Shown here piece after piece: positions 1 to 41,229 of a DNA stretch of 64,000 nucleotides. The DNA lies in assembly GCA_008632985.1 (NCBI GenBank), contig QPGO01000007.1, positions 372,001 to 436,000 on the forward strand. The letters are read 5' to 3'. Source of the stretch: Psammoneis japonica. Lineage: Eukaryota. The first letter of the stretch is position 1. Each line of letters starts with the position of its first letter. Made by a program: the position numbers and the translations under genes. Under the pieces are notes generated by a model that saw only the letters and a list, made by a program, of their open reading frames with translations, ran no database searches and was not told where the DNA came from.

Positions 1-730
1 AAGTTTCCCAATCCTTTGAGGTGCACCCACCTGCAACTGGTGAAGAAGTGGGGCATCCTCCACACTGAGCTTGGGGGTGCAGCACCTGCCTCTGGGCAAT
101 GCTCTAAAAAAAGGGGGGGTGTTGCCCTGCATGGCAGTGTGTGTCCTGGGCTCTTTTCATCTGAGCATGCTTTGGCGCTCTTGAAGGCTGTTGAGCTTGA
201 GCTTGTTCACCAGGTGCATGCTCTGCTGGGGAGTTGGACTTGGCAAACCTCATCTCCAAGGTGCATCCCAGGGTCTCCAGTGAAACTGGGCTTTATCTTG
301 GAGTGCTGGCTGAGCTCTTTCAATGCTGTCATGACACAGTTGTGCACCATCAGCATGTCATTGACACACATCAGTGCATGGGCAAAGCACCAAAAGCCAT
401 CTTTGAGCCTGACCTCTCGTTGGAGCCATGCATCTGGGTCAGTCAAGCATGGCCGTGACAGCCCACATGACACACACACAAGTGAGGCTTGGTCATTTCC
501 TGAGTTGCACACCTGTGCTTTTGAGACCACACAGTGCTTTCTGGGTGACCATTTTTGGGTCCAAACTCAGGACCCACCGGAGTTGTGGTTGTCCTTTTGC
601 TGCTGTTTGGAGCAGTGACACAGGTGCTCTTGATGTTTGCTGCCTTCACCTCCAAAGCACTCAGCGCTGTGAGACCAAAAGTCATTTTTGTGCTCTCTTG
701 CATTCCAACACTTGCATGCATCAAAGTTGC
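1..730 (-). mobile_element. Ty1/Copia (CoDi-like) reverse transcriptase remnant
   Basis: Minus-strand frames give HASVGMQES...LEVKAANIKSTCVTAPN...GPEFGP (cf. YASVVSRES...LEVKAADIxNAYxTAP...GPEFG), PCLTDPDAW, LMCVNDML (cf. YVDD, 357-368) and GDPGMHLG. Frameshifted. Confidence 0.8.
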
Positions 731-3524
731 AGAGTCTTTTTACAAAAATTTGAGCATGTGGATGTGGCTCATGAAGCAGCACCAGAGTTGACAAAACAGC
801 CCCACCATGCTTTGAGAGTTAAACCAGATTTGCAACCTCCACAAAAACTCACAAATGTGTTCTTCAGCAACAATTTTGAAAAGAGGAAAGCATGTAGATC
901 ACATCTGTGAAAATGCTCAGGTCATTTGCCAAAAACAATTGTTGTCAAACAACAACAATTTGCACACCAATTGTCACACTGGCAAAAAAATGTGGCAGCT
1001 CTTGCTTTGCAAAGAGACAAATCCAAGTGCCAAATGAGCTAACTTGTTGTTGACCCTAAATCTGTGGAACAATGTTCTTTGGAAAAGCATGGAAATGGCT
1101 TTGAGCCATGCAGATTCCATGTCTCACAGCATTGAAGTTTTGCCATTTGCTGTTGGTCACTCTGTTGTGCTTGTTTTGAGAACACCCACAAGATCAAGAG
1201 TTTCTGGATTCTTGGCCAGTCGCAATGTTGCAGTGACTGAGTTTGCCATCACACACATTAAAACTGTGCACTGGCTTGGCACTCAAGCTGAGCTCTGGTG
1301 AGTAAAAGAAAATTTGTTTTTGCAGTTTTCAAATGTGGCAGACAGGCCTGGACAATGGTTGCATGTTTTAGACCCCTGTCTCCCACCCAAAAGGGCACAA
1401 GCTTTGGCTTTGCCTGTTGCCAAAACCAGCAGGAGCCAACCAGCCCTTGCAGCAGTCCTGCCCTGGATTTTGCATGTTGCTGCAGCTCTCAGCCCACTTC
1501 TTGTTGACACAAAAGCAACCAACAACATGATGGTTGCTGTGCAAGCACTCCACAAGACTGTGCCACTCTGCATGGATTCACAGACATGTGATGTGCTGAA
1601 TGTTTGCAAGAGTCAGTTCATGCCTGGCTGGGTGTGTTTGACATTTCATTTCATTGACCCTTGCCACCCAGAAGAGCAGGGCAGTTCCCCCCAGTCTGTG
1701 CCCAATGCTGGCCTTTGTGAGCCAAATGCTGGTGCACACAAAAGCATGTGGCACACTGCATGACACTCTTTTGTTTTTTGAATGCTGACACCACTCAACT
1801 CTTGGGCTGCATTTCCTGAGCAGCTCTTGTTTCCTGGACAACACTTGGCTCTCCTGCTTTGCTGAGACCACAACAATCATTTTTGGGGCTCCTCTGTGTC
1901 CACCAGGGGCCATGGCTGCCAGTGCTGCATTTTTTTGCATTGGCAAATTTTGGCTGGTGGTCTTGAGAGGCAGACGCACTTTGGTTTTTGACCCAGTTGG
2001 TGGGAGAGTTTGCTGCAGCAGCTCCTTTCTCTCAGTGTCCAGTGCCACAATTGCAGCAAGCAAACTTGTTGACAGGATGCCATCAGTTTTTGCATTTGGG
2101 GAGTCACTTGGCAAAAGGCCACCTTTGACAGCACATCTCCACTTTGGGCAAATTGGGATGCTGTTGCGGTTTGCTGTGCCAAAAAAAAGATGGGGGAGGC
2201 TGTCAAAGCTGAGGCAGCTTTGTGTTTGCAGCTCAAGATGTCCACCCAAAGAGTTTGCATTTTTGCTGCTGCTGCCATTGTCGCTGTCAACATGTCTTGT
2301 CTCATGGCTGTCATTCATGTGCCAAAAGAACTCACTTCACTGAAAAAAGAAAGCACCGTGTTGTCCATTGTGTGAGGCAGTGTTCTGTGATGCAAAGGGT
2401 GTGTTGGAAAATTCCACAACTCCCTTGGCCAATGATGTGGAGCAATGCAAAATGCTTCTTCCATGATTTTGGGTTCAAGCAGCAGTGCCCAATGCTTTTG
2501 GCAAGATGCCATTGTTGTGAATTTTGCACCACTCTCATCTTGACTGCTGCTGTGCAGCCCCAAAGGGCGGAGAAGTGCTGGAGGCAAAGCAACATCTTCT
2601 TGTGAAAATCAAGACAATCAGCCCAGCTGCAGCAACAAACATCATTGCTCATCATCATGGTCAACAAATTGTCATTGGATTTCAATTGACGCTGTCATCA
2701 CAATGACTGTTTGCACTGCTGAGCCTTGTTTGGTCCATTCCATCGGTGGCAGATTTTTTGAATTCTGTGAAACCAGGCCTGCGGGGAGCACTGGCTGCTT
2801 GTCTTTCTTTGTGGGTGTGAGTGCATTGCCTGTGTGGCCCTGCACATGCAGGGCCCTGCCACCGGGGCTGGCATTGCAGTGGCAGAGTGGTGCAGCCACT
2901 GCACCAGTGACATGCAGACGACCGTCATGTTTGATGGCTCATGACATTTTTGGGGCTGCAGCGAGGGGCACGGGGACACTCTTTTTTTCCAGTTTATTGC
3001 CAAAATGGCACATCGCACAAACCCACTTGTTGTTTGACATGCTTTTTCCAATGTGACTTTTTTGTGCACAATTCATGATAAATTCTCTTTGTTCAAAGCC
3101 ACACACATTTGTCTGCATGCCATGCTGGCAACCCCAATCACAAGGCTTTCAAACTCTTCTCAAAAACAGTTCCGCGCACCCATTGCAGAGAATTTGTTGA
3201 TTTTTAGGATGTCCCCATGACCTCCAATGTCCTTGATGATCATTCTCTGAATCCAAGTGATCTGTTTGCACTGCCCCAAACAACACATGCTGCCGTTCCA
3301 AAATCCAAGGGACACACTAGAGTGACAGATCACAAGTGAAGACAACCACCTTTGCACTCACCATGTCATGCTGGTGTGCACACTTTCTGCAATGATGTTG
3401 GTGAACACGAGCAGTGAGTCCACATCCGGGTGCTGTTCTGGCTTCACTCCGGCTTTTCACTGGTGAACGCAGTGCAGAAGTGCACACAAACAATGTGCCA
3501 TGGTGCTTCAGCTTCAATCTGCAG

Positions 3525-4266
3525 CAGTGTTTCCCAAGTGTGCATTTTGGTCAAACCAAGTTGGCATCATTTTGGTTGAACCAAAACACTTTTGTTGACC
3601 AAATTGCCAGACGACCAGCCAAATCAATTTGGTTGACCAACTTCATTTCATGTGCATTGGTGTTTCCCGAATGTGCATTTTGGTCGGACCAAATTGGCAT
3701 TTTGAACGAACCAAATTTGTTGACAAATTTGATGCTCGCGACCAAAATGATTTTGTTTCCCAAAAACGTCATTTTGGTCGGGGGAATTTGGCGCGCTTTC
3801 GGCGAGAATCTTCCGTTGGAAAATGCGCATGTTGACACACCGTGCAAATTTCGTAGAAGCCACGTCAGTGTTGTTTGTGCAGAAATGCACATGAAATCAA
3901 TTTGGTCGAGATTTCACAAATGTCAATTTGGTCGACCAAATTGATTTGGTCGGTCTGGCAATTTGGTCAACAAAAAACATTTTGGTCCGACCAAAATGCA
4001 ATTTGGTCCGACCAAAATGCACATTCGGGAAACACTGTTTCCACACAAACAATGCTGACGCAGCTTCTACAAAATTTGCACGGCATGTCAACATGCCCGT
4101 TTTCCAATGGCAGATTCCCGCCAAAAGTGCTCCAAATCCCCCCCAACCAAAATGACATTTTTAGGAAACAAAGTCATTTTGGTCGCAAGCATCAAATTTG
4201 TCAACAAATTTGGTCCAACCAAAGTGCCAATTTGGTCCAACCAAAATGCACATTCGGGAAACACTG
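3525..4266. mobile_element. Non-autonomous TIR element (MITE-like, hAT-like ends), outer copy
   Basis: Starts CAGTGTTTCCCAAGTGTGCATTTTGGT at 3525 and ends ACCAAAATGCACATTCGGGAAACACTG at 4266, with many internal TTTGGT/ACCAAA subrepeats. No clear target-site duplication (TSD). Confidence 0.75.
3658..4037. mobile_element. Second copy of the same MITE, inserted inverted inside the outer copy
   Basis: TGGTGTTTCCCGAATGTGCATTTTGGT at 3658 to ...CATTCGGGAAACACTG at 4037. Its reverse complement aligns with the joined outer halves (3525-3657 plus 4038-4266). It retains many CpGs. Confidence 0.75.
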
Positions 4267-5749
4267 GTCAAAGATTCTGTCTTTGCATGTCTCCAAAAAA
4301 AAATTTGAGCATGCCACAATGAAACTGAAAACATTAAACTCAATGATGAGTGCAAACAACAATGCTCCACTTCTTCCCAGCTCCCATGCTGGCCAAAATG
4401 CCTTGAGCTTCCCAAGCAGCATGAACGCTTGTTCAGCAGTGGTGGCAGCAGTCGGAGGATTGGTGGCAGTGGTTTCCATTTGTTGCTGGCATGCAGCAGC
4501 TGCAGCAGCATCTTGCAAAGAGGATGCCAACATTGGACAGGCTCATTGGGGAACACCACAACCACAAGGCAAGCCTTTTGTTTCTCTCTTGTGAAATGTG
4601 GTGCAAGATGCATTGCCAACAACTCACTTTGTTTTCTTTCTTCAGTTTCTTTCCGACATGCTTGCAGCATGCAAAGACAGCAATGCTTGCAGCACCAACA
4701 CATCCAGTGCTTCTGACAAGATGAATCCATGGCACAAGCTGGACAGAAAGCTCAATGGAGAAAGCGGTGTGTGTCTTGTGCATGGCATCAGTGTTGCACA
4801 AAGTGGTGATCATGTGTCTGCTGCTAAAGGGAAATTTGCATGGGATGTTCCCAAAAAGAAGAGGGTCGGCATCCTGCCATGCCTTTCAGAGCTGCACCTT
4901 TAGGACCCTGATCCACAGGATCCTGAAGAAATGGGCGCAAAGGCCCAAGGTCACATGTTGTGGCAGCAGTTTCTTTGCACTCAAGCAGCTTTGCAGGAAA
5001 AGAGCGATGCTTCAATGGCAGCCAGGTTGCAGACTGAGGAGAACAACAACTGCCATGAGACCTGCTTTGGTCTCAATCCTCCCTCTGCTCTAAACTCAAT
5101 GAGCCTCACTTTCCCTCCCTCTCAAATGAATTCTGCAGGGGGGCTGCAGGAGCTCCAGATTCTACATTCAAGCACAGTGCTGCAACGAATGGAGCAAAAT
5201 CATCCCATCCAACCAAAACTGCTTGTTCTGCTTTGGCAACCAATGCTGCTGGTTCTGGCACAGCTGACTCTCCATTGGAAGTTGATGGCACTCCTTCTGC
5301 CTCCCTTCTAGAAGGCAATGGAAAAGTCACAAGGTGCAGCGGCAATTGCAGCTTCTTGACTGCAGCTAAAAGTGCTTTGGCTGATCTCAACTCAAGCAGC
5401 GGCAGCACTCTCTTGGTTCTCCAACAGCAAACTCAGAATCTTGCTGACAAACGCAGGCTTGAGAGCCTTTGCAGGGGTTGCATGGATGCAAAAGAATGCG
5501 GAGACAAGAATGACTGCCAGTGGTGCAATGCAAAGATCAAAGAGGAGGAATGCAAGTTTTTTGGGAGGGAGCAGGCACAACACCATTCACAACAGATGGA
5601 ACAGTCTGCGATTGAAACAAAGCTCTGTTCTGTGACACTGGCTTTCCTTTGTTGCAGCATTGGCTGGAAGCAGATGCATCCAGAGAAACAACAAGTGCAG
5701 GGAGGGTGACATGGGCCATTGACATTTTTCAATGAAAATGGCCACTCTG

Positions 5750-7020
5750 TCTTTGTCAATGTCTGCAGTTGCAGGTGATCCTCCAACTCTGGAGAACGCA
5801 GCCCAAGAGAGTTGCCAGTGTTGGATCCACTCAAGCACATGTGGATGTTGCAAAACAGAAAACCCATGCTTGAGCTTGAATTGATTCTTCTGATTCGTCA
5901 ACTTAAAGAGATTCACTTCACCTGCATGTCCCCATTCAACAGCTTCACAGCACCATTTCATGACTGCACTCTCAATGCTCAGTCCATTTGTGAGAAGTGG
6001 AGCCAATTGTGCAGTCTCATGCTTTGTCCAAGCACAGCTCCACACACCTTTTTGAAAGCTTGTCTCCATGAAATGAATGTGCTTTTCTTTGAAGTTCAGG
6101 GCAAGCTTGCTGGATTTGCAGAAGCCAGTCATCCATGTTGCTTCCATGTGGGGCTTGGCTGTCATGCCCACACAGATGCAATCAAACCAGTTGAGTCATG
6201 AGAAATGTTGAATGAATTGCAAAAGGATTGTTGTTGCAGCGCATGCAGCCATGATGACATTGGTTCCCACATGCATGCACGCATTCCATTTGGAAGATTG
6301 AAGGCAAACATTTTCAAAGCATGCTTTTTTGATTTTCCAGTGTGCAGCTTGCTGTGCTTCATTGCTTTGAGGACAATGCATGCTGCCTTCATGGTCTCCA
6401 TCTGGACCAGTGCAAGGAGCAGACACTGTGTAGTCTTTGCAATTGGACAATCCACATGCTGAGAATGTCCCAGGTTTGAAATGGACTCCATCACAATGAA
6501 CATGTTCTCTTGTCTCAGGATTTGTCAGAGTCATGTCTCTTCCAAGGTCAACTTGAATCACCTTGGCAAGTTCTGGGAAGTGTTGCACCCAACGTTGAAG
6601 GCCGGCTGGTCCTGCGACATTTGCACGCCTGGCATCAAGATGACAAACAAAGCATTTGTGTCTACATGGCCACTTCGTTGCCTCCCCTGAGATTCCATCA
6701 ATTGCCATTTCTTTGTGCATCTTCCCTTGTCTGTGCTTGATGAGTGTGTGCACCAACAAGTTCTCTCAGTGAAATGCAAGATCTCATTGATTGTTGGGAC
6801 AAGGCACTCAGACCCATTCAAGCAAGTCAAACAGCACCAACATTCTTTGCAGCTTGTCCTTGGAAAATGATGCAAACTCACCCGTCTCATCATCATCTTG
6901 GAAATCATTGATTCAGGTAAACCGCGAGGCATTTTGATGTGCCTTTTTGGCCATTGCTGCATCAGGAACATTGCCAACTTCAGAGTTAATTCAAAGCCAA
7001 AGAGTGGAGTGCAAAACACA
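5750..7020 (-). mobile_element. PIF/Harbinger-like DDE transposase remnant
   Basis: Fragments GLQRWVQHFPELAKVI, GLSNCK...PCTGPDGD, KKHALKMFAFNLPNGM...EPMS and AVEWGHAGEVNLFK resemble DDE_Tnp_4 motifs (GFIDC, KKxHxLKxxxxxxPNG, xVEWxF/Y). Multiple frameshifts. Confidence 0.6.
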
Positions 7021-7049
7021 GTTTCTAAATCCTTGCAATGACACTTGAG

Positions 7050-9050
7050 TCATGGCATCAACAAAGTGCAGCTCAGGAACATCTTCCACTTAGGAAATGA
7101 TGTTGCCTCATTCCAGTTTGCCCAACACGAGCACCCACAAGAAAATGCCCCCATCAATGCCAAGGCAGCACTTTGTTGTGCTTCCCTGCAAAGCATCCCA
7201 TCATTGATGGACATTCCCCATGATTTATGATGTTTCTGCTCAGTCCATTGTCTGGGCATTCATGTCCTTTTGCCGGTGAGAGGATTGATGATTTTGATGA
7301 AGAAAGACTCTGGAGACTGTTCAACTCTCCTGGCAAACAATTTTTGTTCTCGTGTTCCATGAAGAAATCTTGTTTTCAATTTTGGATTCAATCAACTTGT
7401 TCTCAAGTTGATGGGAAGTCATTTTGGAATTGACAAGATTGTGGGAATTGTGATTCCTTTTCATCATGATGTCAGGGTTTTGGTTGATTCCATCATGCGC
7501 AAAAGCAACTGTGTTCATGATCTGTCACTCTGCTCTCAAATTTGGACAGACCTGCCCCCCAACTGCCCAACTGCCCAACCCCAACTGCCCGACTGACACA
7601 AAAAAGTCAGCAATCACCAACCACTGAGTGGTCAATGAAATCTGCAGTGCTGCATGCAAAATCATTGTAAAATCCACCCTTTTTGAACTCAGGGTTCTTT
7701 GATGCCAACAATGTGAAGCAGCCACCTTTCACCACTTTTGTCATGTGCCCGCAATCAGGTGGCTGCTGCAAAAAAACCCTCAGCAGTGTCTCCAACCATG
7801 TCACACATTGCTCTTTAATGAGTGCAACAATGCTTTGTGTGTCCCCATCTGAAGTCATCTCACGGGGCACAATGCCCACATCATTGGACTGGAAGGCATT
7901 GTCATTGTCCAACAGCAGCTTTCTTGCAAGTTTGATGTTGGCATGCTCTTCTGCCACCCCAGGGCCACACTTGGAATTCTGAGAACATGAGCCTTCACAG
8001 GAAAAATCAATCTTGCCAGGAAGAACATCATGACATTGCTTTTCAGGATGATTTTGAGGGTGCATGGCAACAATTTGGGGACAAGCACCACAGCTGATTT
8101 GATCTGCAATTGCAGCAAGCAGCTTGCCTGTCACTGAGCCAATGCAGACCAACCAATGAAGCACACCTTTAACTTGACAACAGATCCACCACATCAGCCC
8201 GCCATCATCGCCTCGTTGTTCATCACCCCAGCATCATGACTGTGATGCTTTCCATCTTGATCCATAAATTCAAAGTTGCCCTCACAATGTCTCTGCTTCC
8301 TGCTTTCTTCCACATGCTCTCTTCCATTCTGAAGCAGTTGCTCTTTTGCCACAGGTGGCCCAACCTTCTCAATGCATTTGAACTGCTTGTCGATTGCAGA
8401 TTTTGGCAGGCGCACACCCCGCCAAACCCCGCGTGAAGCTCCTGCAATTTTTCTCTTGAACCACCAGCATCAATGGAAGCCAGCGCAACAAGAATTGTGT
8501 TTTCTGACACAAGTTGGTCTGATGGTTGCATCACTTGTTCTGCTTGCCATCGCACCATTTCCTTCCAACAACAGGAACAATGCCAAACTTCTTTCAAGCC
8601 AGATGACAGATTGTTTCCATCCACCAACCTCGCATCATGACCACACTTTTGATTGTGATTGAATGCATCTTTTGTCCATTTGTCATCCATTTTGATTCTG
8701 GCCTTCTTGCAGCCGGTCATGTTGTCAAATGAGTCCGACGTGCAATTTTCTTTGTTGTTGCCTGTGGGGACAGTGGAGCCGACACTTCCGCTGTTGTGCT
8801 GAGTTTCAGGAGAGCTTCCAGCACCCTTCTCCACATCATGGTTGAAACTGGGCTCACTGCCATTTGATGCATGTGCCTTGGATGCAGCATCTTCCAACTC
8901 TGAACTCTTCTGAACTGGGGCACAAGCACAACCGACATTCTCGAAAACTTTGTGAGCAGAAAGAAACAGCGTCTTGTTACGAACAAAGCAGTTTGTGGCA
9001 CAATCCTTGGAATGGCAACACATGCATCACGTTGTTCTTTGTGACATTTA
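7050..9050 (-). mobile_element. Mutator-like (MULE) transposase remnant
   Basis: Fragments ILVALASIDAGG, CIGSVTGKLLA...SCGAC, CSQNSKCGPGVAE, MTSDGDT and PDCGHMTKVV resemble Mutator-like transposase motifs (IGxxTGK, CxxNxxxSSxxME, xSDxDS, DxxHxxK). Confidence 0.6.
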
Positions 9051-15560: not shown

Positions 15561-15699
15561 TGCAGATGCAAGATTGCTCCCCATCCTGGGCAGCAACACA
15601 CAAGCATGCAGTGCCAAGGGGGTGCTTTACCTTTTTTGGCATTGCAGCTGAAGTGCAGCATCACTGGAACAAGCAACCAAGCTGTCCACACCTGCTGCT

Positions 15700-15700
<1 letters not shown>

Positions 15701-15744
<44 letters not shown>
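15701..15744. repeat. (CT)22 microsatellite
   Basis: Perfect CT run at the start of repeat copy B; copy A has only a short CTCTCGCTCTCT at the equivalent place. Confidence 0.95.
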
Positions 15745-15746
<2 letters not shown>

Positions 15747-27530: not shown

Positions 27531-27676
27531 TCGACGTTGTGTGACGTATGTGTAGATTTCTGCGCAATGTGCTGATCTAATCGAAACATTTTATTTTACG
27601 AAATTTCCGCATTTTTACGGTTGGGGTCACCAAACAGCTGTGCAGTGGTTGAGCATCCTAATCTAATGTTTGCATG

Positions 27677-30600: not shown

Positions 30601-33328
30601 ATTCCGTCGCCACCCTGTTCGTAGTTTGAAGCACTTCGTCGTACGATGCAGCATCATCTTTCTGGGTGTCTTTTAGGATGTGCTCAATCGTGCATTGAGC
30701 AGACGGTCCAGGCATCAATGAAGCAATGTTTGTGTTGCATGTCAGTTTTGATCTGCTCATTGCAGGGCACGACACGTTTTGAAAAGCATCGCACTTTCTC
30801 CTCTTCGGAACAACTTCCTTCACACACCGATGCGCAAAAGTCCCATCCCAGCTGAACCACTTTATCTGAGTGTCATCTGCGTTCCTTGCTAAATCATTTG
30901 GACACGAAGCAGCTGGTTGCCTGTGACGGCAGTCACCCAGTTTGAGCTCCTCTCGTTTCCTTTTCCTTGACAGTGCGTCCAGTTCCTCGTGTGGTTTTTT
31001 TTTGCGCATTTTATGTAACTCCACGCATTTGGGAAAACACAACTTCATAACGTGCATGTGATGGTTGTAAGCTGCGTCCAGCACATGTGCCTCCATTGTC
31101 CCTTGCGGACCACTTCGCTGGTGTTGTGCACACATTGCTTTCAGTCGCTTTGCATGGTCATCTGGATGGCGAGTCAGGCCAGGCACACGGTGCCGTGACT
31201 GTAAAAAGCTTTCTACAAACTCGACGTTTGTCCAGTGCTTGGTGCAGTGACGACAACAAGCAAACATTCCGTTCTTCGACTGCTGGCCGTCTTCATGCCT
31301 CAGGTTTCTTAGCTGTTGGTCGTCTGCTGCTTTTGGAGAGGTGCGACACATTTTTGGCACTGCACAGTCATGATCGAATGCTTCACGCAACGCGTTGGTG
31401 CTGAAGTCCTTGCTGCAGATTAATTCTGTGCTGCAGATCTTCTGAACTGTGTTGGTGAGGCACTCAGCACCTTCGCGTCGGATCTGTCTCATTGGCGAAT
31501 GCAGTTTCTCTCTTGCATTGTTGATTGATGCGAACCAGATCTGCATGTGTCCGTGTGCTGTCAGATGTCCCTGCTCCTCAACTGCGGCTAAAAATGCGGC
31601 TGGCCTGCCAATGCAGAAGTTAAAGTTTTCTCTTGGTTGGCTGGCACTCAGATCCCAACCCACTGCCTCTTCTGTTGCAATGTCAAACAAGCACTCGAAT
31701 GCAAAGGCTGTTAGACTGGGAAACTTTAGACGCAGTTCATTACGTTGCTTGGCCCTGCTGGCAAGAATTTCGTCCGTCAGTTGTGTCACGTCTTCGTTTG
31801 GGTCCAGGATGACACCCGAGTGCAGTTGCACAAGAAATGAATTTGCATCGTCCGGACTGACGGTTAAGAAAATGCCACCCTGACCAAAATGATGCTGATG
31901 AGTTTCGGCGTTTCTCCTCATTTTCTTTGCTGCTTCATTGCTGTGTGGCAGAGACGCAGATGCAACGTCGAGTGCGCACAAAAAGTGGTGCCCGAGTCCA
32001 TGATCTATTCTCTCGCCCAAGTTGCGATCACAAACAGCTCCATCCACATCGTCCACTGTCAGTTCGTTTGCAAACTGTGCAGCCTGATTCTTGTCCCTGA
32101 CTTTCCACCCTGCGCTCTGTGGCATCCTTTGCTTCATTGTCAAGTTGCAGCATGTTAACACGAAGAGCTGCTCGTGGAAGTGAGGCTGGGAAATCCGTGC
32201 CAAGTGGTCGGCACAGTGTGCAACGTTGGTGCCATCTGTGAGACTTCCGTCTTTCTTCATTCTCGTCTCATTGATTCCTCCTCTGCCAAAAGGAAACTGC
32301 AGCAGACACGCGTTGATGAAGTTGTTGCCTTTGAAATCACTCGCAGATTCTTTAGACAACTGTGCTTGCACCTCTAAATCAAATCCGTTGGCAGCAGCTT
32401 CGTGTGCAAGATCTTTGAAGCAGTCCAGGTTGCGCTGACCACCGGTCACAGGAGACATGGTTCCATCAGGAAAGCAAATGTGAAATGACTCTGAGGTCTC
32501 AACATTTGCATTTTCTCCTTCTTCTTTGCCGGTGCTGTCGACAAGTGCGGGATTCCGCAGATTACGCCCAACTTCGTCTAGATTTGTCTGTTGGTGCACC
32601 CACTCTTGGTTGTGGTGCAACAGCCATTCCATCGCCCTCAGCATGTGGTGCGTCCTAATTCTGTTCTTTGAACGTGCAAGTTGTCTTTGCTCCGGAGTCA
32701 TCTTTCCAGTCATCAGTGCAATCACATTCTGATGTAAATTCAGCACGTCGAAGTGCACAACAGTTCTTACGATGCTTTGCATCTTGACTTTGTAGTGTGT
32801 CAGACTTCCCTGAAGCTTCTTCTGTTTGCCGCCAAGGCAACTGAAGCAGCATCCGCATGTTTTCACTGGTGTGAGCATTGCCAATTCTACTTCGGTTAGA
32901 GACAACAGTTCGTGCGGCGGGGTGCCGAAACAGCAGTTGTTCGCTGTCGCGTGCATTGGCACAACGGCTCTTCCCAGGCTTCTTCAGCATTCGCTGCAGC
33001 AAGTGAATCCGTCGACGCGTTGTCTGTCTTCCTGCACTGCGCATTGGGCACGGGGAGAAAGCAGCAGGTCTTTGATCCAATCAGCATCTTCATGCTCTAC
33101 AGTGCAGCAGGACTTGAGACGATCAGATGCACTGTTCCAGTCTGAAGGGGTGAGTGAGTTTCTTGCTGATTCCAATGTTTCGAGCGGCAAGCAGCAAACT
33201 TCTCTAGGTTTCAGCAGAACGTCACAGACCAAACATGCGTGTGGTCTAAATTCTCCGTCTCCACGCAGACAAAGCATCTCAAACTTTCTGTTGATTGCAT
33301 TGCAAACACGGGAGTTGGCCTTGTCCAT
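27677..33328 (-). pseudogene. Helitron Rep (HUH endonuclease)-PIF1 helicase, hypermutated
   Basis: Rep motifs IFLTVSP, VEEQGHLTAHGH and CTIEH (=YxxKY). PIF1 motifs HGAGGSGKST, TGVAA...GDTIH, VVDEIS, FAGDLRQLEPV, HRFKDD, ANGT, GHKLQG and HVVLSR. ORF 32984-33328 is in the same frame, separated by one TGA. Confidence 0.9.
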
Positions 33329-33417
33329 TTTAATTTAAGCTGTTGGCTCGACAAATTTCAAGAAGTTGCTCAGTAAAAACAGTTGTTTTTTCGGTGCGAT
33401 CACCGTGAAGCTGCGAT

Positions 33418-34045
33418 CGGTGCCATCCAATCACCACAGCGATGTGTGTTTTCTCGCCACCTGCAGCACTGCGACTGGTGTCATCCAGTCACTGCAGTGG
33501 TTCTGTCCAGTTGATCAACGAACCGCGTCGGTGCCACCCGTTCACCGCAGCGCTGTGTCGTCTTCTCACAACCTGTGCAATCAGGTCGCTGTGAGCACTG
33601 CGACTGGTGCTGTCCAGTCACCGCAGCCGAGTTAATCAGTTGCTTGACGAACTGCGTCGGTGCCACCCGATCACCGCAGTGTTGAGTTGTGTTCTCACAA
33701 CCTGTGCAATCAGGTCTCTGTGAGAGCTGCGACTGGTGTCGTCCAGTCACCGCAGCTGAGCTTGTGCGTCATCTCACAACCTACGTTGCGAGGTGCAGCG
33801 CTGTGTTGTTCACTCACAACCTGTGCAATCAGGTCGCTGTGAGAGCTGCGACTGGTGTCGTCCAGTCACCGCAGCCAAGTGAATTAGTTGCTTGACGAAC
33901 TGCATCGGTGCCATCCGATCACCACAGCGTTGTGTCGTGTTCTCACAACCTGTGCGACCAGGTCTCTGTGAGAGCTGCGACTGGTGTCGTCCAGTCACCG
34001 CAGCTGAGCTTGTGCATCATCTCACAACCTGCGTCACCAGGTCAC
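33418..34045. repeat. Imperfect tandem repeats, ~110-130 bp unit, five core copies
   Basis: Core GCGACTGGTGTCGTCCAGTCACCGCAG recurs at ~33471, 33600, 33729, 33848 and 33977. Confidence 0.85.
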
Positions 34046-34895
34046 TGTGAGAACTGAGAACTACGATCGGTGTGGCCCAATCACCGCAGTTGGATGCTTT
34101 TCGTTTCCCTTTGCGCAAAGGTTCTGTCACAAAAAAGTGAGACGAAAGTGTGCCTCTTTCACCTCGACGGAAGAGTGACGTGTGCGTTCCTCCCACGTCC
34201 TTCTTCGTACCAGACGCACGACATCCTGCTTGGTTTCGTCGACATTGAACATCCCATGGGATGAGATTTGGATCTTGTTCAAGTTGTTTTGACCATCTGC
34301 TCTGAACATTCCATGGGGTGAGATTCGGATCTTGTTCAAGTTGTTTTGGCAATCTTGGTGGTGGGCGCAGCTTTGCACAAATTCCGTAGAATCACACTTT
34401 GACGAGTGGCAGGGCAGTTGAGTCAGTCGTGTGGCAACAACAATGCGATTGACGTCATTCGTGTTTCCAAAGTGCGCGCGAATCCTCCAAATGGGTGATG
34501 GGCCCACCTCAGCTAACTGCCGGTACAGTGTGCAGTGACAGCGATGGCGTCGACCGTTTGGCGACTAGATTTCGTGCGCGATGGCCGCGCGGCAGTGACG
34601 GCTGAAATGCACACGAAGCACGGACGGAATTGCGCGTGATTTTACGCATTTTCAGCAAACTTGGTGCGACTTTGCGTGCTCCGATCCTTGCATCTGTTTT
34701 GTTCAAATTGAATCCATGCACCACTTGCAAGTGCTGACACCTGGAAGGTTGCCTTGTTGCAGTTCGACGTGTTTGAACCTGGTTGCTGACGTTGCCAGTT
34801 CTCCTTGGCATGATGCACGCAGCTCTGCTGGGTCTTTCTTGGCACTTCTGAATGATCGCACTTTTTGTTCCCACAATTTCTCTCCGACTGATTTG

Positions 34896-35768
34896 ATGGC
34901 ACGCAAAAGAAACACAATGACCTCCCCGGCTGCGAAGGCCAAAGTCGCCGAAACCAAACAGAAGAAGGCAAAGACGAAGTTTTCTGATGCTCTGTTGAAG
35001 AAACTAAGTCCGCCCCGCAAGACCAATGGCTTGACCGACGACGACCTTAAACCGGAAGACCACCTTGCCAAGCACGGGTTCAAGCTTTCCAAATCGGCCG
35101 GTTCTGACGATGGCAGCCATTCCGACAAGGACGCCCTCCTGCGCTGCGCCACCATCACTGTCGGCCGCAAGAAAGGCGTCGTTTTTCGTCTCCAAGCCAA
35201 GAATCCCCTTTCAACCAATGTTTGGTCGGAGAAGGTTCTGTTTGATGACCTTCGCAGCAGGACTCCATGGGTGGTTCAAGTCGGATTCCACCCTTACGCT
35301 GGCAGGTGGGTTCACGAGGGCGAGTTGCAGACGAACGCCAAGAACTGCGCCGTGCATCTCTTCTTCATCTTCCTCGAAGAAGTCCCAACCGATGCTAAAG
35401 TGCGCGGCCTCGGGAAGCACATTGCGAAGCAGCTGAACGATGACCCTGAGAACAACACCGAGGTCTTCGTTGAAGACGACTTCTTCTGGATGAAGGATGC
35501 TGTTTGGTCCGAAGTGATCGGCAACGAGGCGGCGCTTGCCGAGCTTCAGAAGGAAGGTGGTCAGTTTCACATCGGTTGGCACGCCCAAAACAAGAACTCA
35601 CTTCACAGTTGCTTCTACGAGGGGTCGTTGCCTGTGGAACTCTGTCGTCTCATTGGAGCTCCGGCAGAAGAAGCTGGAGAAGAGGCCGACGATGATGTCG
35701 AGCTCAACTGCGAAGTTGACCTGAACGTCGATGACGACTTGGTGCTTCAGGACAGCGACGAAGACTGA
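34896..35768 (+). CDS. Hypothetical protein, basic N-terminus and acidic C-terminus, element-borne
   Basis: GC3-rich coding-like ORF, MARKRNT...KQKKAK (NLS-like) to ...DSDED; only two Tyr. Confidence 0.65.
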   Translation: MARKRNTMTSPAAKAKVAETKQKKAKTKFSDALLKKLSPPRKTNGLTDDDLKPEDHLAKHGFKLSKSAGSDDGSHSDKDALLRCATITVGRKKGVVFRLQAKNPLSTNVWSEKVLFDDLRSRTPWVVQVGFHPYAGRWVHEGELQTNAKNCAVHLFFIFLEEVPTDAKVRGLGKHIAKQLNDDPENNTEVFVEDDFFWMKDAVWSEVIGNEAALAELQKEGGQFHIGWHAQNKNSLHSCFYEGSLPVELCRLIGAPAEEAGEEADDDVELNCEVDLNVDDDLVLQDSDED

Positions 35769-35855
35769 GTTGTTTTTTTTTTTGCCGGTGCAGTGTAAAT
35801 TTGTAAATGTTTGGCAAACCAAGTGTCGATTGCAACTCAGCTTTCCTCTGTCTCT

Positions 35856-36791
35856 TCAAGTGTGCACCATCTCCGACGATAACTTTACATTACCGCGAAG
35901 CAATGGCGAATTGAGCAGAGTAACTAGCGTGTGACGTCCAGTGCAGTGACAGCAAAAAAACAGTTCAGTTGAGTTCTTAAGTGAAATTGGCTGTTTCGCG
36001 ACGGGCAAATGCTTCCGTTCCAAGTGTGTCGGAGTGGGACGTCGCATGTGCTGGCTGGTTGACTGAGAAGTCTCCTCTTTCTTGGTGCACTTGTGGAAGA
36101 CGAGATGTTTCATGTCTCCGCTGTGCCACAAAAAGTCACCATCATGGCAATCCACCATGAAGGACTCGCACATCCACTCTCCCGCGTACGATGCGAACAG
36201 CGGATCTAGCACCACCACCATGGTCCCAGCACGACACAACTTCGAAAGCATTGCCTCTGCCTTCTGCTGTGTGTTCTTGTCGTCGACCATGCGGGAGTTG
36301 CAGTTGTTGAAGAACACCTTGAGTCCTTTCTTTTTCCACAAAGGAGCCAGCCTCTCGTCCAAGAATGACTTGTTGATCAACTCTAACCCACCGTTCGAGC
36401 AAAGGCCAGCACGATGAGCCCAACGTACAGCCTCTTGGTGACGATCGTGGTCGGCCTCGATGCTCACCACGGTGCAACGGCGACGAAGTAACTTGAGCCC
36501 GATGCTGGGTCCGGCAACTCCCCCGCCCATGTCGACAGATGTGTCGCAGGTGTGATTCACACCAAGAAGGCGTTCGTTCAAAAACACTTCGCTGCTCAAA
36601 GCGAAGCCAACTTCGCCGCCGTGTGAAGATCCGCTTCCGTCTCCGGAGACACGCCTGCTCTGGAACGCGGAGTCCGGAGCCGTTTGAAGACAAAACTCCC
36701 TGACACTTCTGCAACGATGGTTCATTGCATCCAACCTTGTGGCAACATCAACCTTGCTTGCAGCGGGTTCGACCAGACGTCGCGTTTCCAA
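35856..36791 (-). CDS. DOT1-like class I SAM-dependent (histone H3K79-type) methyltransferase, hypermutated
   Basis: Ordered motifs SHGGE (cf. YGE), VDMGGGV (cf. VDLGSGVG), SIE, KSFL (cf. GDFL), VFFNNCN (cf. IFVNNF) and AGTMVVVLDPL (cf. GxRIVSxKP). Confidence 0.6.
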   Translation of the reverse strand: METRRLVEPAASKVDVATRLDAMNHRCRSVREFCLQTAPDSAFQSRRVSGDGSGSSHGGEVGFALSSEVFLNERLLGVNHTCDTSVDMGGGVAGPSIGLKLLRRRCTVVSIEADHDRHQEAVRWAHRAGLCSNGGLELINKSFLDERLAPLWKKKGLKVFFNNCNSRMVDDKNTQQKAEAMLSKLCRAGTMVVVLDPLFASYAGEWMCESFMVDCHDGDFLWHSGDMKHLVFHKCTKKEETSQSTSQHMRRPTPTHLERKHLPVAKQPISLKNSTELFFCCHCTGRHTLVTLLNSPLLRGNVKLSSEMVHT

Positions 36792-37136
36792 ACCAAACTG
36801 TGACGTGCGCAGAATGCGTAAAATTGCCGTCGCGCCCTCTGCGCGCGCGAAATTTTCAAACGCGGCGTGCCACCTCTACCTGCGCATGGAGCGACGTACA
36901 AAGTCATTTTAAACAGACATGTGGACGCGTTGAAATAATAAGACGCCTTTGGGCGGTAAAATTTGTTTTGAATCTCGGCCTGCTTCTCATCGTTGCCATG
37001 CTTGTGTGTCCGTGTAATTCAAACGCACGAGCTGGCACGGCACGTGATGCACTTCTACGCGAGAACTCGCACTGAGATTGCCGTGGGATGATCCTCCCTC
37101 CGCGGAGACAAAAACAACGCGACAACACTTCCGTCA

Positions 37137-38606
37137 TTGCACCTTGAAACACATTTCAAATTGAGACACACCATGTCGCAACTACCTCGTGCCTCGCTGC
37201 GTCGTCCTGCCAACGACAAGCACTTGTCGCGATCAAGTTACAGCCAGTCTCGACAGTGTGGGGGTTTGGGACGTGCAGCTTGCAGCCCGACAACAAGCAA
37301 ATGCTTCTCGCGATTGGGTTTCGACCCCACTCCCCTGGAGTCCGCCGGTCCCTGTCAACAGAGTTTTGCTTTGGGTGCTCTTGAGGCAACGGAAAGCAGA
37401 CACATCTCTCGATTGGGTTTTGACCCCACTCCCCTGGAGTCCGCCGGTCCCTGTCGACAGAGTTCTGCTTTGGGCACTGTTGAGACGACAGTGACAGTGT
37501 CAAGCAGCGGAACATTTGCCGGTGAGTTCGCACACACGTTCTCTGCGAACACTGCATCGTCAATGCGCACCAGGATGTGCGAGAACGTGTTGAGGGCTCA
37601 ACCGCCACTTCGTAAGGCCCACCGCAGCCGCAGGCGAATCCGCAGCCGCGCCAGTGGGAAAACATCCAAGATTGCTTGCCTCGTTCCACTCGCACCGTGC
37701 GCCACTAAGAGTCTCTCCGTACACTGCACAGCTGACCGCACTCTGGTTTACAATGGGGACTGCACTCAGCCTGCACCACCTTGTCTTGCTGACATTGACT
37801 TTGCCGAATTGGCTCCTCTGGTCATCTGTGACCCTGTGCTCGATCTGAAGCCTTTCTTTGGCTTGGACGGTTGCCGCTGCGACAACACCTGCACCCTGCT
37901 GCCGCGTTCTGCTGTGGTGTTCAGCTCCCCCAACCCAGCAGAACTCGTTGCTCAGTGCCGAGCGCTCGAAGCACTAGAATGCTGCACCGCCCAGTCCACC
38001 GTGCGCGGCAAACAACGCGTTGCCTTCATGGAGACGGACAGGAGCAAGCATTCCACGATTGGCCTGGCTGCCACGAGGGACGCTCGAATTTCTTGCAAGC
38101 AGCCTGGCACAGCCAACCAACACACTCACCACCTCACCAGACTTCTTTCACGCATGGAGCACCTTGTCAATGAGTGCGTGGACTGTGCCATCCTTGAGGG
38201 TGTCGCTCGTGTCAAAAAGTTTCACAACTGGAAATCCCTGGTGCGGTCAGATGGCATTTTCTCCTCTCTGGCGGCTGGGTGCAATGTCTTCCTCAACGCC
38301 CATCGGGACCAGGACTTCTTCCTGTCAGCAGTCACCGTGGTGGGAGTCCCTCCGTCCGGCAGCTACACCATGAATGACGGGATTGTGGCGTGCTTCTGCT
38401 TCCCCACCGAAGGCATCTCCATTGCACTCTGGCTTGGTGATGTCATCATTTTTAACCCCACCAAGTGCTGCTGCATCTCCAGCAGGACAAACTCAAACGA
38501 CGAGTTCTTCTGCGTGTCTCTCTACCTGAAGAGTGCTGCAGTGGGCAAGAACAACAATTCAATCCCCCTTTCTCTAGAGGAAGAGACCATTCTCAGGCAA
38601 CTGTGA
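37137..38606 (+). CDS. 2OG-Fe(II) dioxygenase, TET/JBP-like, hypermutated
   Basis: C-terminal double-stranded beta-helix-type motifs: FLNAHRDQD (HxD), FCFPTEGISIALWLGDVIIFNP and CVSLYLK. The expected distal His position reads KCCCIS. A 99-bp internal duplication lies at ~37307-37500. Confidence 0.6.
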   Translation: MHLETHFKLRHTMSQLPRASLRRPANDKHLSRSSYSQSRQCGGLGRAACSPTTSKCFSRLGFDPTPLESAGPCQQSFALGALEATESRHISRLGFDPTPLESAGPCRQSSALGTVETTVTVSSSGTFAGEFAHTFSANTASSMRTRMCENVLRAQPPLRKAHRSRRRIRSRASGKTSKIACLVPLAPCATKSLSVHCTADRTLVYNGDCTQPAPPCLADIDFAELAPLVICDPVLDLKPFFGLDGCRCDNTCTLLPRSAVVFSSPNPAELVAQCRALEALECCTAQSTVRGKQRVAFMETDRSKHSTIGLAATRDARISCKQPGTANQHTHHLTRLLSRMEHLVNECVDCAILEGVARVKKFHNWKSLVRSDGIFSSLAAGCNVFLNAHRDQDFFLSAVTVVGVPPSGSYTMNDGIVACFCFPTEGISIALWLGDVIIFNPTKCCCISSRTNSNDEFFCVSLYLKSAAVGKNNNSIPLSLEEETILRQL

Positions 38607-38831
38607 CAGCACAAAATAACTTGCTAAATTTTTTGCGCAAATTTACTGACTTTCTGTGCTCAGGCGACTGTGCAGGTGCCTGCCAATTTACCAGATTTGC
38701 GCAAATTTACCGACTTTCTGTTCTTCCTCGTTCCCATTTTTCGAACCACAACTGGGGCTACGCCTTTCCAACTAATGCCACAGTTTCACTGAAAAACACC
38801 AACACACTGTGCTGCTAATTTACAGAGCACA

Positions 38832-39452
38832 CTACACGGGAAACGTTTTGCCAGACGTGGAGCTTCTCCCCCCCGACTTGGGGAGTAGACGCGATTTCTT
38901 CTTCCGATTCATGGCACCCAACGTCGCCTTCCTCTTCTTCTTCTTCTTCTCTGATTCATCCAAGTTGCATCTGCAGAGAAATTCCTCCCCGGGCATGATT
39001 CGCTTCATGACTGCCAAGCACCCGTCGTTGTAGAACTCGCAGTTGTTGTCCACGTGTTGGCTTGCCTTGATCTTCTTCTTGTCCTTGAACGACTTGGTGG
39101 CATCGTTCATGCAGTGCATTCCGAGGTAGAGTGGATGGGAATTCTTGTTCCCTGGACCGCTAAAATCAAGCGGTTTTGGCTCCACTGTGACATGGCAGCC
39201 CTCGCTGTCACGGATGGTGGAGCAGCACACGCTGTGGTCTTCTCCAAACTTGCTGTCATGGTCGTACCACGAGCAGCTCCTCGTCGTACCGGGCACCCTG
39301 GGGCCCACATAGATTCCAACCGCACTGCCTTTCTGGAACTGGCGCAAGGCAAAAAAACCAACGCCTGCACCCCTCCGTTGCGATGCGCGTAGCTCGCCCA
39401 CCTCCACCTCCTTGGGGCCTGCGGAGCGAACGGACTTTTCGAGGCAAAACAA
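38832..39452 (-). CDS. SET-domain protein (lysine methyltransferase-like), hypermutated
   Basis: GAGVGFFALRQFQKGSAVGIYVG, GMHCMND, NNCEF and KRIMPGEEFLCRCN (cf. IxxGEELxxxY), followed by a Lys-rich tail. Confidence 0.7.
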   Translation of the reverse strand: MFCLEKSVRSAGPKEVEVGELRASQRRGAGVGFFALRQFQKGSAVGIYVGPRVPGTTRSCSWYDHDSKFGEDHSVCCSTIRDSEGCHVTVEPKPLDFSGPGNKNSHPLYLGMHCMNDATKSFKDKKKIKASQHVDNNCEFYNDGCLAVMKRIMPGEEFLCRCNLDESEKKKKKRKATLGAMNRKKKSRLLPKSGGRSSTSGKTFPV

Positions 39453-39634
39453 CGCAGGTTAAGTGACACGGCGCCTCATCCAAATGTGCACACTTCTGCA
39501 CTTGCTCTCTTCATGAGACAGACCAGTGCGAGCGACCACCCCGCTTCGAAAGCCTCGACGGCGGTCTTGAACACTTTGTTGCTCTTCGGCATCGAGTCTG
39601 GGATGCCCCTCTCGCCGACTTCCGTGCGGTGCCT

Positions 39635-40318
39635 CTACACCCACTTGCAGTGTTCGCCGTGAGCATTCGCGACGGCTTCAGGGTCGCTCCTGATGCACCC
39701 CAGTTCTCCCAGCACGGGGAACCAGAGGTCGGGATCATTCGGCGCATCCTTCATCAGGCACATGGACTCCTGGAATTTATCGGATTTTTCGTGCTGCAAC
39801 ACCCAGTCCCACAAGTCGAATGACGGATCGTTGGGGTCCGGAAATTGCTTTCCTTCTTCTTCCTCTTCCGCCGTTGCTTTCGCAACCACTTTGGCCGCGG
39901 GCTTGGCTGCCTCCTCGCTTTTGCCGCTGCAAAAAGGCAGGACCTCCAGTTTCACAAAGGTGGCCTGATCACCCACCAACTCGATCTTGCAACCGGCCTT
40001 GAGGAGCTGCTCGGCGGTGCAACCCAGCTGCTGTGCTTCATTCCAACCACAAATTTGAAAGGTTGGCTCCGGCGGCACGGCTTTCTCACTCTTTTCAGTT
40101 TGGGACTGCGCCGGCTTCTCCGACATCCTTGCGCGTTCGGACTCGACGGACACACCCTCGGCACTTCCCTCGGCGCCAAGTGCAGTCATGGCAGCTGCCG
40201 CCGCGCCTTCGGTGCCCGTGAGTTCTGCCATGACTTCCGGAGCTGCTACATCCTCTGCTTTGCCAGACGCAACGATGTTGTCCTCCGCCATTCTAGCACC
40301 GTGATGACAGAGCTGCAC
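39635..40318 (-). CDS. Ala/Glu-rich hypothetical ORF, possibly the broken N-terminal part of the SET gene
   Basis: Same strand and directly upstream of the SET ORF; coding-like composition; no Tyr. Confidence 0.45.
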   Translation of the reverse strand: MQLCHHGARMAEDNIVASGKAEDVAAPEVMAELTGTEGAAAAAMTALGAEGSAEGVSVESERARMSEKPAQSQTEKSEKAVPPEPTFQICGWNEAQQLGCTAEQLLKAGCKIELVGDQATFVKLEVLPFCSGKSEEAAKPAAKVVAKATAEEEEEGKQFPDPNDPSFDLWDWVLQHEKSDKFQESMCLMKDAPNDPDLWFPVLGELGCIRSDPEAVANAHGEHCKWV

Positions 40319-41229
40319 TCACTGCTGTGTGGTGTGCTGCTTTATTCCAGCCGTTGGCGATCCACATCCTTCTGCGCACGCATTAATGAACGTATGACAC
40401 TTCGCACCAAATTCCACGTAGCGCGTCTGCACCTGTCTACGTCCGTCTTCACTACTGTACGCACTACGGCACTGCAGCGCACCCTTTCAAACCTTCATCA
40501 ATGTTTATTTTTTCCTTCCTTTTCCTTTTCTCTTCTTCTTCTATCTGGCTGGGAGGAACTGCTGGATAGCCGGCCTTATTTAGTCGTACAGTAGAAGTAG
40601 CTTCATCGACACAGAGACGAGAAAAGGGACCATGCCTGCCAATTTACTATGCCTGATGCATGCTTGAACAACCTTGCTCGCGTCGTGCTATAGAGACTAC
40701 TTGGACGGAACCTTTTTGCTCCCTCTAGAGAGCCTACAATGGTGCTAGTAGCTGATGTCTCCACTACAGTACAGTACTCTCTCGTAGCTTGAGTAGATAG
40801 CCTCGCCTACCGGTAGAGAGACCTAGACTCTAGATAGTAGAGCTAGGATCGAGGGCTACTCAAAAGGGAGTAGACGGAGACCATTGCTCACACTATGAAT
40901 GTAATTTGGTGCGATTGCTCTTTCCCAGAAAACTGAAAACACAGACAGATAGTGCGGTTGTGATTAGTCTAGTACCTCGTTTGCAATTCAAGCAAGTTGG
41001 TAAAAGCGCGGACGCTGGGAACGCTGGAAACTGAGGCAATGCTACAATTATTAAACAATTAGAACATTGTCTCTAGCTCCAGGTGAACCCCGCAAAACAA
41101 TTCGCAAATCGGATCTCTTCGGCAAATCCCAGTCTGCTCCGCAACATAAAAGCGCCTGAAATCAACAAACCAAGCAAAGCTTGAAACCTCCACAATATCG
41201 GTTCTAAAAAGTAGCACTCCCGTCATTTC

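Follow-up and report, generated by a model that had tools for sequence, protein, structure and literature searches.

Three TpA-depleted blocks between the genes of a diatom

We analysed 64,000 nucleotides of contig QPGO01000007.1 from Psammoneis japonica (assembly GCA_008632985.1, positions 372,001 to 436,000; hereafter the window), in which three long blocks are strongly depleted of the dinucleotide TpA and rich in TpG and CpA, beside genes of normal composition. Block 1 occupies positions 1..9000 and extends past the window's left end, block 2 spans 13831..19700 and block 3 spans 26901..40350, the last of them carrying the gene of a Helitron transposon. Judging by its coding sequence, the window belongs to a diatom nuclear genome: on the minus strand (21795-23147), it carries a gene for GMP synthase that is 80-87% identical to entries assigned by their sources to diatoms, including Phaeodactylum, Mediolabrus, Chaetoceros, Fistulifera and Pseudo-nitzschia, with no closer match. 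The host genes, which lie between the blocks, include those for a TIR-Roc protein, MYND finger, p24, MORN, U-box, MFS and UCH proteins, a pyridine-nucleotide oxidoreductase, Fringe-like paralogues and a hydrolase.

TpA and CpG were scored as the ratio of observed to expected counts (o/e), with expectations taken from base composition, in 1-kb windows; block edges were placed with 100-nt bins. TpA o/e was 0.02-0.08 across positions 1-9000, 0.00-0.16 across 14001-20000 and 0.12-0.30 across 27001-40000, and mostly 0.4-0.8 in the rest of the window, while TpG and CpA o/e reached 1.4-2.0 within the blocks. In absolute terms, 42 TA were observed where 646 were expected at 1-9200, 28 where 418 were expected at 13831-19900 and 167 where 782 were expected at 26801-40420. 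Tested against the window's own background o/e (0.58), these counts have Poisson probabilities of 2e-106, 1e-68 and 5e-54 for blocks 1, 2 and 3, respectively. CG is equally depleted in the first two intervals (114 of 506 expected, o/e 0.23, and 41 of 342, o/e 0.12) and nearly intact in the third (759 of 904, o/e 0.84). The flanks of the blocks have TA o/e values of 0.49-0.61 and CG o/e values of 0.95-1.04.

The transitions between these regimes are sharp at 100-nt resolution (~9000-9200, 13830, ~19700, ~26900 and ~40350), and the text of the blocks is complex sequence rather than microsatellite or simple repeat. The missing TA and CG together balance the surplus of TG and CA (701 vs 748, 500 vs 483 and 403 vs 499 in blocks 1, 2 and 3), and the TG surplus is about equal to the CA surplus; the deficit, therefore, went into TG and CA in a strand-symmetric manner. 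In blocks 1 and 2, CpG loss supplied roughly half of the surplus TG and CA. An earlier note, made from the letters of this stretch, had described three TA-poor, TG/CA-rich blocks beside normal genes, a description borne out by the o/e counts and the sharp edges; it was silent on the CpG depletion. The background outside the blocks, intergenic DNA included, has itself a TpA o/e of only 0.58, with TpG and CpA at 1.14, which could reflect either a weak genome-wide pressure of the same kind or an ordinary eukaryotic shortage of TpA.

Contents of the blocks

Block 3, with a TpA o/e of ~0.2, contains the Helitron gene and five further Tyr-poor open reading frames (ORFs). Every ORF in the block has between 0 and 1.9% Tyr, with Cys and His raised, while host genes mostly have 2.1-4.6% (one at 0.8%). 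The Helitron Rep/helicase gene (27677..33328, minus strand) matches the Pfam families PIF1 (6.8e-16), DUF6570 (2e-12) and Helitron_like_N (2.5e-7). It begins with an ATG at 33328, runs for 114 codons to an in-frame TGA (32986-32984), at a position where relatives have Lys, and then continues for 1768 open codons. Its architecture, an HUH-type Rep domain joined to a PIF1-family helicase in one large protein, is common to 31 full-length relatives with 31-46% identity.

The encoded protein has 0.51% Tyr, compared with a mean of 3.35% (minimum 2.51%) in the relatives, and Cys and His are raised. We defined conserved Tyr columns as those with Tyr in at least 70% of the 31 relatives; the 17 columns so defined hold Cys seven times, His seven times and Tyr three times in the window Helitron. 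Other conserved residues were kept: Phe at 28 of 31 positions, Trp at 14/14, His at 17/17, Cys at 13/14, Arg at 30/32 and Gly at 42/45. Conserved Ile and Val, whose codon sets include the TA-containing ATA and GTA, were kept at 8/16 and 9/18 positions and are otherwise replaced by Met, Thr, Val or Ala. The motif PGPxAxYxxKYxxK reads PGPSAQCTIEHILK, so that both tyrosines of YxxKY, consensus Y764 and Y768, are lost, reading C and H. We take these tyrosines to be the catalytic pair of the Helitron, needed in an active copy, and on its sequence the element of block 3 is a dead copy. The equal numbers of Cys (A>G on the sense strand) and His (A>G on the antisense strand) mean that both strands were struck, which rules out editing of the mRNA alone.

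Although ~80% of the TpA and 14 of the 17 conserved tyrosines are gone from the Helitron, its ~1900 codons contain a single stop, which suggests that TpA conversion is rapid relative to ordinary mutation. The genetic code accounts for the open frames. TGA is derivable by this route only from TAA, both TAA and TAG are themselves removed, and only CGA>TGA, a CpG change, makes a stop; since neither TA>TG nor TA>CA ever creates one, dead elements retain long open frames. The abundance of long, meaningless ORFs in blocks 1 and 2 follows from the same property, and an open frame is here evidence neither of function nor of sequencing artefact.

A second hypermutated ORF of block 3 (37092..38606, plus strand) belongs to a family so far found in diatoms only, with the relatives P0305 (named an unknown protein of Seminavis robusta in its source) and P0306. 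In alignment A4, two of its three conserved Tyr are H or C, and its second conserved His is C. The proposal that conserved tyrosines of unrelated proteins in transposable elements (TEs) read as Cys or His thus applies both to this ORF and to the Helitron. The C-terminal domain of the family has an HxD...H motif, and the conserved pattern NVHTDQDFF ... HC(I/L)SSR resembles the metal site, HxD...H, of 2-oxoglutarate dioxygenases. Pfam searches with the ORF and its two relatives gave no match even at E-values up to 10 or 1, and an AlphaFold2 model from the three-sequence alignment reached a mean predicted local distance difference test score of only 31.8. A protein-atlas cluster in which 13% of members carry PF12851 pointed weakly to TET/JBP for this ORF, at a low recognition score. 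When the block 3 ORFs (a-h) were compared with the Helitron loci by tblastn, the sole match was a frame antisense to the N-terminal part of the Helitron. A tandem repeat within block 3 (33418-34042), directly upstream of the Helitron gene, has a 248-nt unit in three copies that are 67-90% identical.

Blocks 1 and 2 consist of sequence depleted of both TpA and CpG, block 1 being almost without either. Block 2 contains an internal duplication (13499-15526 vs 15837-17448, 71-81% identical by self-BLAST). Block 1 contains a nested element (3517..4270) resembling a miniature inverted-repeat transposable element (MITE), rich in inverted repeats (I1-I5, including terminal arms at 3525-3566 and 4225-4266). 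This element has lost TpA (3 TA, o/e 0.05) and kept CpG (29 CG, o/e 0.85), in a surrounding block with CG o/e of 0.13-0.20. In contigs of sequencing run X1, its summed word depth is 234-551 vs ~35 nearby, with many contigs matching at 95% identity or more.

Most of blocks 1 and 2 lies at single-copy word depth in run X1. Summed depth reaches 1691 in one bin of block 1 and 177-551 in others (7338-8004 and 2669-4669), with the rest of the block at ~35, so that short parts of it are high-copy in the genome; a joint from 3205 to 7610 and loose ends at 7640 accompany these bins. One run X1 contig, with the same depth as block 2 (35.1), joins 13313 directly to 19620 and omits 6306 nt. One contig of a second run, X2 (depth 4.7), makes the same joint, and in these contigs two variants lie close to it, at 13262 and 13266. 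Block 2, together with 517 nt of normal flank, may be missing from the other haplotype.

Direction, recurrence and context of the change

The duplication of block 2 allows the change to be polarised, as the first ~330 nt of its left copy lie outside the block. This flank (13499..13830, plus strand) is homologous to 15837-16200 inside block 2 (self-BLAST, alignment A1) and lies in a segment of normal composition (13314-13830, TA o/e 0.88, CG o/e 1.14). We took the outside copy as the ancestral-like reference and its twin inside as the mutated sequence. Thirteen of 25 reference TA sites were changed to CA (9) or TG (4) in the inside copy, as were 13 of 19 reference CG sites (again 9 and 4), while reference TG was kept at 10/13 sites and CA at 13/19. 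Where both copies lie within block 2, TG vs CA is the commonest adjacent double difference (20/62, the next class having 5), an alternation of the kind that would arise if one ancestral TA or CG was resolved independently in each copy. The process thus converts TpA to TpG or CpA by transitions on either strand. These polarised comparisons support the contention of the earlier note that a separate process, distinct both from the repeat-induced point mutation (RIP) of fungi and from deamination of 5-methylcytosine (5mC), acts on TpA on both strands.

The same signature recurs in other Helitrons. Metagenome contigs scanned with the Helitron alignment yielded 17 loci, most with TA o/e values of 0.47-0.70. 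Four relatives (L002 and L004-L006) have values of 0.5-0.7, the normal baseline of the family. In the unrelated metagenome locus L001, TA o/e is 0.01-0.03, CG 0.29-0.30, and TG and CA 1.63-1.80. Its Helitron ORF is open over 1882 codons, and its 18 conserved Tyr columns hold Cys 12 times, His four times, Phe twice and Tyr never. Of the 14 columns shared by the window Helitron and L001, 11 have the same Cys-or-His outcome (binomial p = 0.03). A HMMER search of 1.84 billion representatives retrieved 1008 Helitron relatives, and in 6 of the 178 examined Tyr makes up 1.04% or less of the protein. Conserved Tyr columns read Cys or His at 16/16 positions in P0173, 6/7 in P0213, 8/13 in P0168 and 10/19 in P0253. 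The six members of the 90%-identity cluster of P0173, on separate contigs, contain no Tyr at all. Cys/His is the commonest difference between these members (8/24, 13/92 and 4/7), followed by Met/Thr, Leu/Pro and Arg vs Gln, His or Cys. A Cys/His difference needs two base changes and is, therefore, rare in ordinary evolution; from their sequences, the siblings appear each to have lost the same ancestral TAY after copying.

These siblings bear on a technical explanation, namely that the DNA really reads TA (and CG) and that a TE-specific modified base was miscalled as G or C. The almost intact frame of the Helitron, in which restored tyrosines would give a plausible active protein, is what such an artefact would leave, and the technology behind the assembly and run X1 is unrecorded. 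A near-intact frame is, however, expected anyway because a TpA change cannot make a stop. A context-driven miscall would give neither Cys/His differences at one site between sibling copies that are at least 90% identical nor the TG/CA alternation between duplicates. Moreover, the blocks are reproduced exactly by De Bruijn contigs of run X1 (word depth ~35), built by Logan from exact 31-letter words: contigs at depth 31-42 cover 13758-15688, 16448-18115 and 18087-19660 with 0 differing letters, and block 1 is likewise reproduced with 0 differing letters at a word depth of ~33-70. Of the 20 kb compared, contigs of run X2 covered only ~9339-13340, outside blocks 1 and 2. Proteins of ENA and JGI assemblies and the unrelated metagenome locus L001 carry the signature too, and changes of this kind arose as new mutations in Illumina-sequenced lines of the chlorarachniophyte Bigelowiella natans, according to the main text of a preprint (Mettrop et al., bioRxiv 10.64898/2026.01.13.699255). 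We, thus, give an artefact very little probability.

Surviving TpA sites revealed a dependence on the neighbouring base. For each TpA that survives, we counted the base that follows its A, on both strands. In four Helitron relatives of normal composition, this base is T in 25% of cases (380/1518), C in 33% and A in 23%. In block 3 it is T in 5% (16/310), C in 30% and A in 36%, and in the more exhausted blocks 1 and 2 combined it is T in 11%, C in 12% and A in 49%. The difference in 3' T between block 3 and the normal relatives has a chi-square p of 3e-19. All seven surviving Tyr codons at conserved columns (consensus cut-off of at least 50%) are TAC. Outcomes at conserved tyrosines follow the prediction of a 3'-neighbour rule, with 15 of 18 His outcomes after a purine and 26 of 38 Cys outcomes after a pyrimidine. 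Susceptibility, thus, declines in the order TAT > TAC > TAG ~ TAA, and this rule may explain why the window Helitron and L001 agree on Cys or His.

ADAR enzymes, which act on RNA, favour a 3' G. The 3' preference observed here, T > C > G, A, has T preferred and G among the least favoured bases and is one of several observations that make RNA-level A-to-I editing of TE transcripts by an ADAR- or ADAT-like enzyme, subsequently copied back into DNA, an extremely unlikely source of the change. Its clearest target is a Helitron, a DNA transposon without a reverse-transcription step. Sense and antisense changes are equal, both in the Cys and His counts of the Helitron and in TG and CA overall, and non-coding parts are affected, as is the flank copied into block 2. 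What speaks for RNA editing is the base on the other side of the A, as both ADAR and fungal mRNA editing prefer a 5' U (PMC11156358; the main text of 10.64898/2026.01.13.699255).

TpA loss can also be separated from CpG loss. TA was lost without CG in block 3 (TA o/e 0.21 overall) and in the nested MITE-like element, and CG was lost without TA in four metagenome loci, L007 and L010-L012 (CG 0.31-0.44, TA 0.47-0.65). As each loss occurs alone, two processes rather than one are probably at work. Diatom DNA methylation is described in PMC5124317 as mainly at CpG and on repeats, which would make the CG loss ordinary 5mC decay. The pattern of such decay is present in the 13 of 19 polarised CG sites that became CA or TG and in CG o/e values of 0.12-0.23. 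The apparently younger pieces lost TA first, which suggests that CpG loss is slower than TpA loss.

A single mechanism that removes both self-complementary pyrimidine-purine steps, such as a promiscuous deaminase acting on C and A or error-prone repair recruited to silent chromatin, would account for blocks 1 and 2 and L001, which lost both dinucleotides with the same products and the same borders. The main text of 10.64898/2026.01.13.699255 refers to reports of ADAT2 enzymes that deaminate A as well as C in DNA. We nevertheless regard one common mechanism as improbable, given the block 3, nested-element and metagenome examples in which only one of the two dinucleotides was lost. The target geometry also differs, the affected C having a 3' G and the affected A a 5' T, and the CG part is already explained by CpG methylation of diatom repeats, as far as PMC5124317 describes it. 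In the hypermutable regions of B. natans, the preprint records 230 of 231 mutations as A>G or T>C, with essentially no GC>AT change.

Among the neighbouring host genes, three Fringe-like paralogues stand in tandem on the minus strand (55510-59480), the two best being 88.8% identical over 1150 nt. They are normal in TA and CG, so recent duplicates of host genes were not hypermutated. Between blocks 1 and 2, on the plus strand (9563-12897), a gene encodes leucine-rich repeats (tandem 84-nt unit, 9758-9925), a Roc/Ras-like GTPase and a C-terminal TIR domain. Contigs of runs X1 and X2 over this gene include many variants, which suggests a multi-copy family.

A probable counterpart of TpA hypermutation in Bigelowiella natans

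The earlier note knew of no described pathway with this signature; one has, in fact, been reported in a 2026 preprint. In its main text, Mettrop et al. (bioRxiv 10.64898/2026.01.13.699255) describe TpA hypermutation of integrated DNA of nucleocytoplasmic large DNA viruses (NCLDVs) and virophages in B. natans. The 230 of 231 A>G or T>C mutations occurred in two viral regions of mutation-accumulation lines, all at TpA, at ~6e-7 per site per generation, ~1000x the genome rate. The genome contains 124 TpA-poor, CpA+TpG-rich clusters, TE domains are enriched in TpA-poor coding sequences, and the authors propose an ADAT2-like adenine deaminase with a defence role. The words 'diatom', 'CpG', 'trinucleotide' and 'flanking' are absent from the main text, although the supplements (Table S2) may hold flanking-base data, and our literature searches retrieved no report of TpA hypermutation in diatoms.

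In both systems only TpA is affected, by transitions to TpG or CpA depending on the strand. Both also act in confined blocks beside normal genes, a feature found here for block 3. They differ in host, a diatom (stramenopile) here and a chlorarachniophyte (rhizarian) there, and in the identified target, a Helitron rather than an integrated virus. Depletion is near saturation in the window (o/e 0.06-0.2), compared with 0.45 in the NCLDV region of B. natans. Blocks 1 and 2 have lost CpG as well, with CpG near intact in block 3 and the nested element, and a 3'-neighbour preference is shown here. Conversely, the process is read from its end product in the diatom, whereas in B. natans it was observed as new mutations. 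The diatom host, the near-saturated Helitron target and the TAT > TAC > TAR preference are, thus, what is new.

RIP, as known from Neurospora and other fungi, likewise ruins mobile DNA by transition hypermutation of both strands; it, too, prefers certain dinucleotides and has sharp regional limits. It has the opposite result, as it changes C to T, mostly at CpA, and creates TpA (PMC2621366), whereas here TpA is removed and CpA/TpG doubled. RIP also makes stop codons, which the TpA process cannot do, and it needs duplicates, whereas blocks 1 and 2 are mostly at single-copy depth and the duplicated flank at 13499-13830 escaped. With that flank spared and a single-copy region affected in B. natans, targeting is positional rather than dependent on copy number. 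Decay of methylated CpG would explain the CpG-to-TpG/CpA half of the changes in blocks 1 and 2 and L001, but the 5mC route cannot remove TpA, the loss of which is separable.

Deaminases offer a further comparison: APOBEC3 acts on retroviral DNA, ADAR on double-stranded RNA and TadA/ADAT on A34 of tRNA, and adenine base editors have been engineered. As in deaminase restriction and editing, an invading nucleic acid is hypermutated here, and a T or U stands 5' of the edited A (tRNA U33-A34, ADAR sites). To our knowledge, no natural enzyme carries out region-specific adenine deamination in chromosomal double-stranded DNA.

Very probably, therefore, the window records a real, region-confined, DNA-level mutational process in a diatom nuclear genome that turns TpA into TpG or CpA and matches the TpA hypermutation of B. 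natans. The case is built on demonstrated properties of the change: its composition and direction, its equal effect on the two strands, its dependence on the neighbouring base, its occurrence apart from CpG loss and its recurrence elsewhere. In the scheme we propose, transitions on either strand would change the TpA of mobile or repeat blocks into TpG or CpA until nearly none is left, while neighbouring host genes would be spared. On older blocks, the slower, conventional decay of CpG to TpG/CpA in methylated repeats would be superimposed.

Several points weigh against this reading, the first group of which concerns the identity of the target. The earlier note had the blocks coincide with transposon sequence, which holds for block 3 through its Helitron and was not confirmed for blocks 1 and 2. 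Among the 117 stop-to-stop ORFs of at least 70 amino acids in those two blocks, none reached a Pfam gathering score, all four of the weak matches (zf-CCHH, DUF1968, ISAV_HA and Atrophin-1) falling below theirs; thus, no TE protein was recognised there. By blastn and tblastx, neither blocks 1 and 2 nor the right-hand half of block 3 matched the Helitron loci or other parts of the window. The assignment of blocks 1 and 2 to transposons would, accordingly, draw only on the nested MITE-like element, the internal duplication and two high-depth bins; they are repeat-like DNA with sharp borders and no recognisable TE or viral protein, and restriction to transposons is demonstrated for block 3 only.

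A second group concerns the data themselves, which comprise one 64-kb window plus Helitron relatives. In the polarised comparison, 12 of the 25 TA and 6 of the 19 CG reference sites were otherwise changed or fell at uncertain alignment positions. Run X1 was made from the sample in which the window is best represented, is possibly the assembly's own data and has an unrecorded library type; its exact matches, therefore, exclude consensus error, with chemistry-specific error not formally excluded. Finally, the data do not tell A>G from T>C at TpA, and an action on adenine, as the earlier note had it, is a further step of interpretation.

Two further points that count against our reading are also those that favour a native composition, in which the elements avoid TA, for instance under a TA-cutting nuclease or through codon usage, and were never mutated in this host. 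The metagenome Helitron L003 (ORF 1-5574) has a TA o/e of 0.34 and a CG o/e of 0.48, yet keeps 18 of 18 conserved Tyr, like a sequence under selection against TA at free positions; low TA alone is, therefore, no proof of hypermutation. From its sequence, L003 could also belong to an active lineage in which TpA is lost only at sites where selection permits. Likewise, the nested MITE-like family may have spread already TA-free rather than having been mutated in place. A native origin of the blocks is, however, extremely improbable. Selection cannot have maintained a protein that lost both YxxKY tyrosines and 14 of 17 conserved Tyr in all, the host-derived flank copy inside block 2 is mutated when its outside twin is not, sibling elements differ by Cys/His, and the family baseline is normal in both Tyr content and TA.

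As to chemistry, the leading, if tentative, proposal is that a TadA/ADAT-like enzyme deaminates the adenine of 5'-TA-3' in DNA, to which thymine modification or error-prone repair at TpA may be alternatives. Targeting would operate via a silent-chromatin or small-RNA mark and would serve genome defence. It is possible, if rather doubtful at present, that diatoms, chlorarachniophytes and perhaps a wider range of protists of the stramenopile, alveolate and rhizarian (SAR) assemblage share a dedicated defence that edits adenine (or thymine) at 5'-TA-3', preferring TAY, in marked mobile DNA. If they do, the system would be a natural, regionally targeted DNA adenine base editor that erases the proteins of its targets while leaving their frames open, and much of the sizeable share of diatom genomes recorded as 'unclassified repeat' would be explained by it.

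The TAT > TAC > TAR order provides a biochemical fingerprint for screening candidate deaminases, and L003 could be a useful, partly depleted substrate in which to observe the process. An enzyme that proved to deaminate adenine in double-stranded DNA would be of interest for base editing. Transposons altered in this way are concealed from homology-based annotation, yet their long frames are predicted as proteins, which matters for the annotation of protist genomes and metagenomes. Diatoms dominate ocean primary production and are genetically tractable, so that both the enzyme and its targeting are testable in them. The sole prior description of such a process is the 2026 preprint on one chlorarachniophyte; its occurrence in a diatom and in environmental Helitrons suggests that TpA hypermutation is a widespread defence or mutational pathway.

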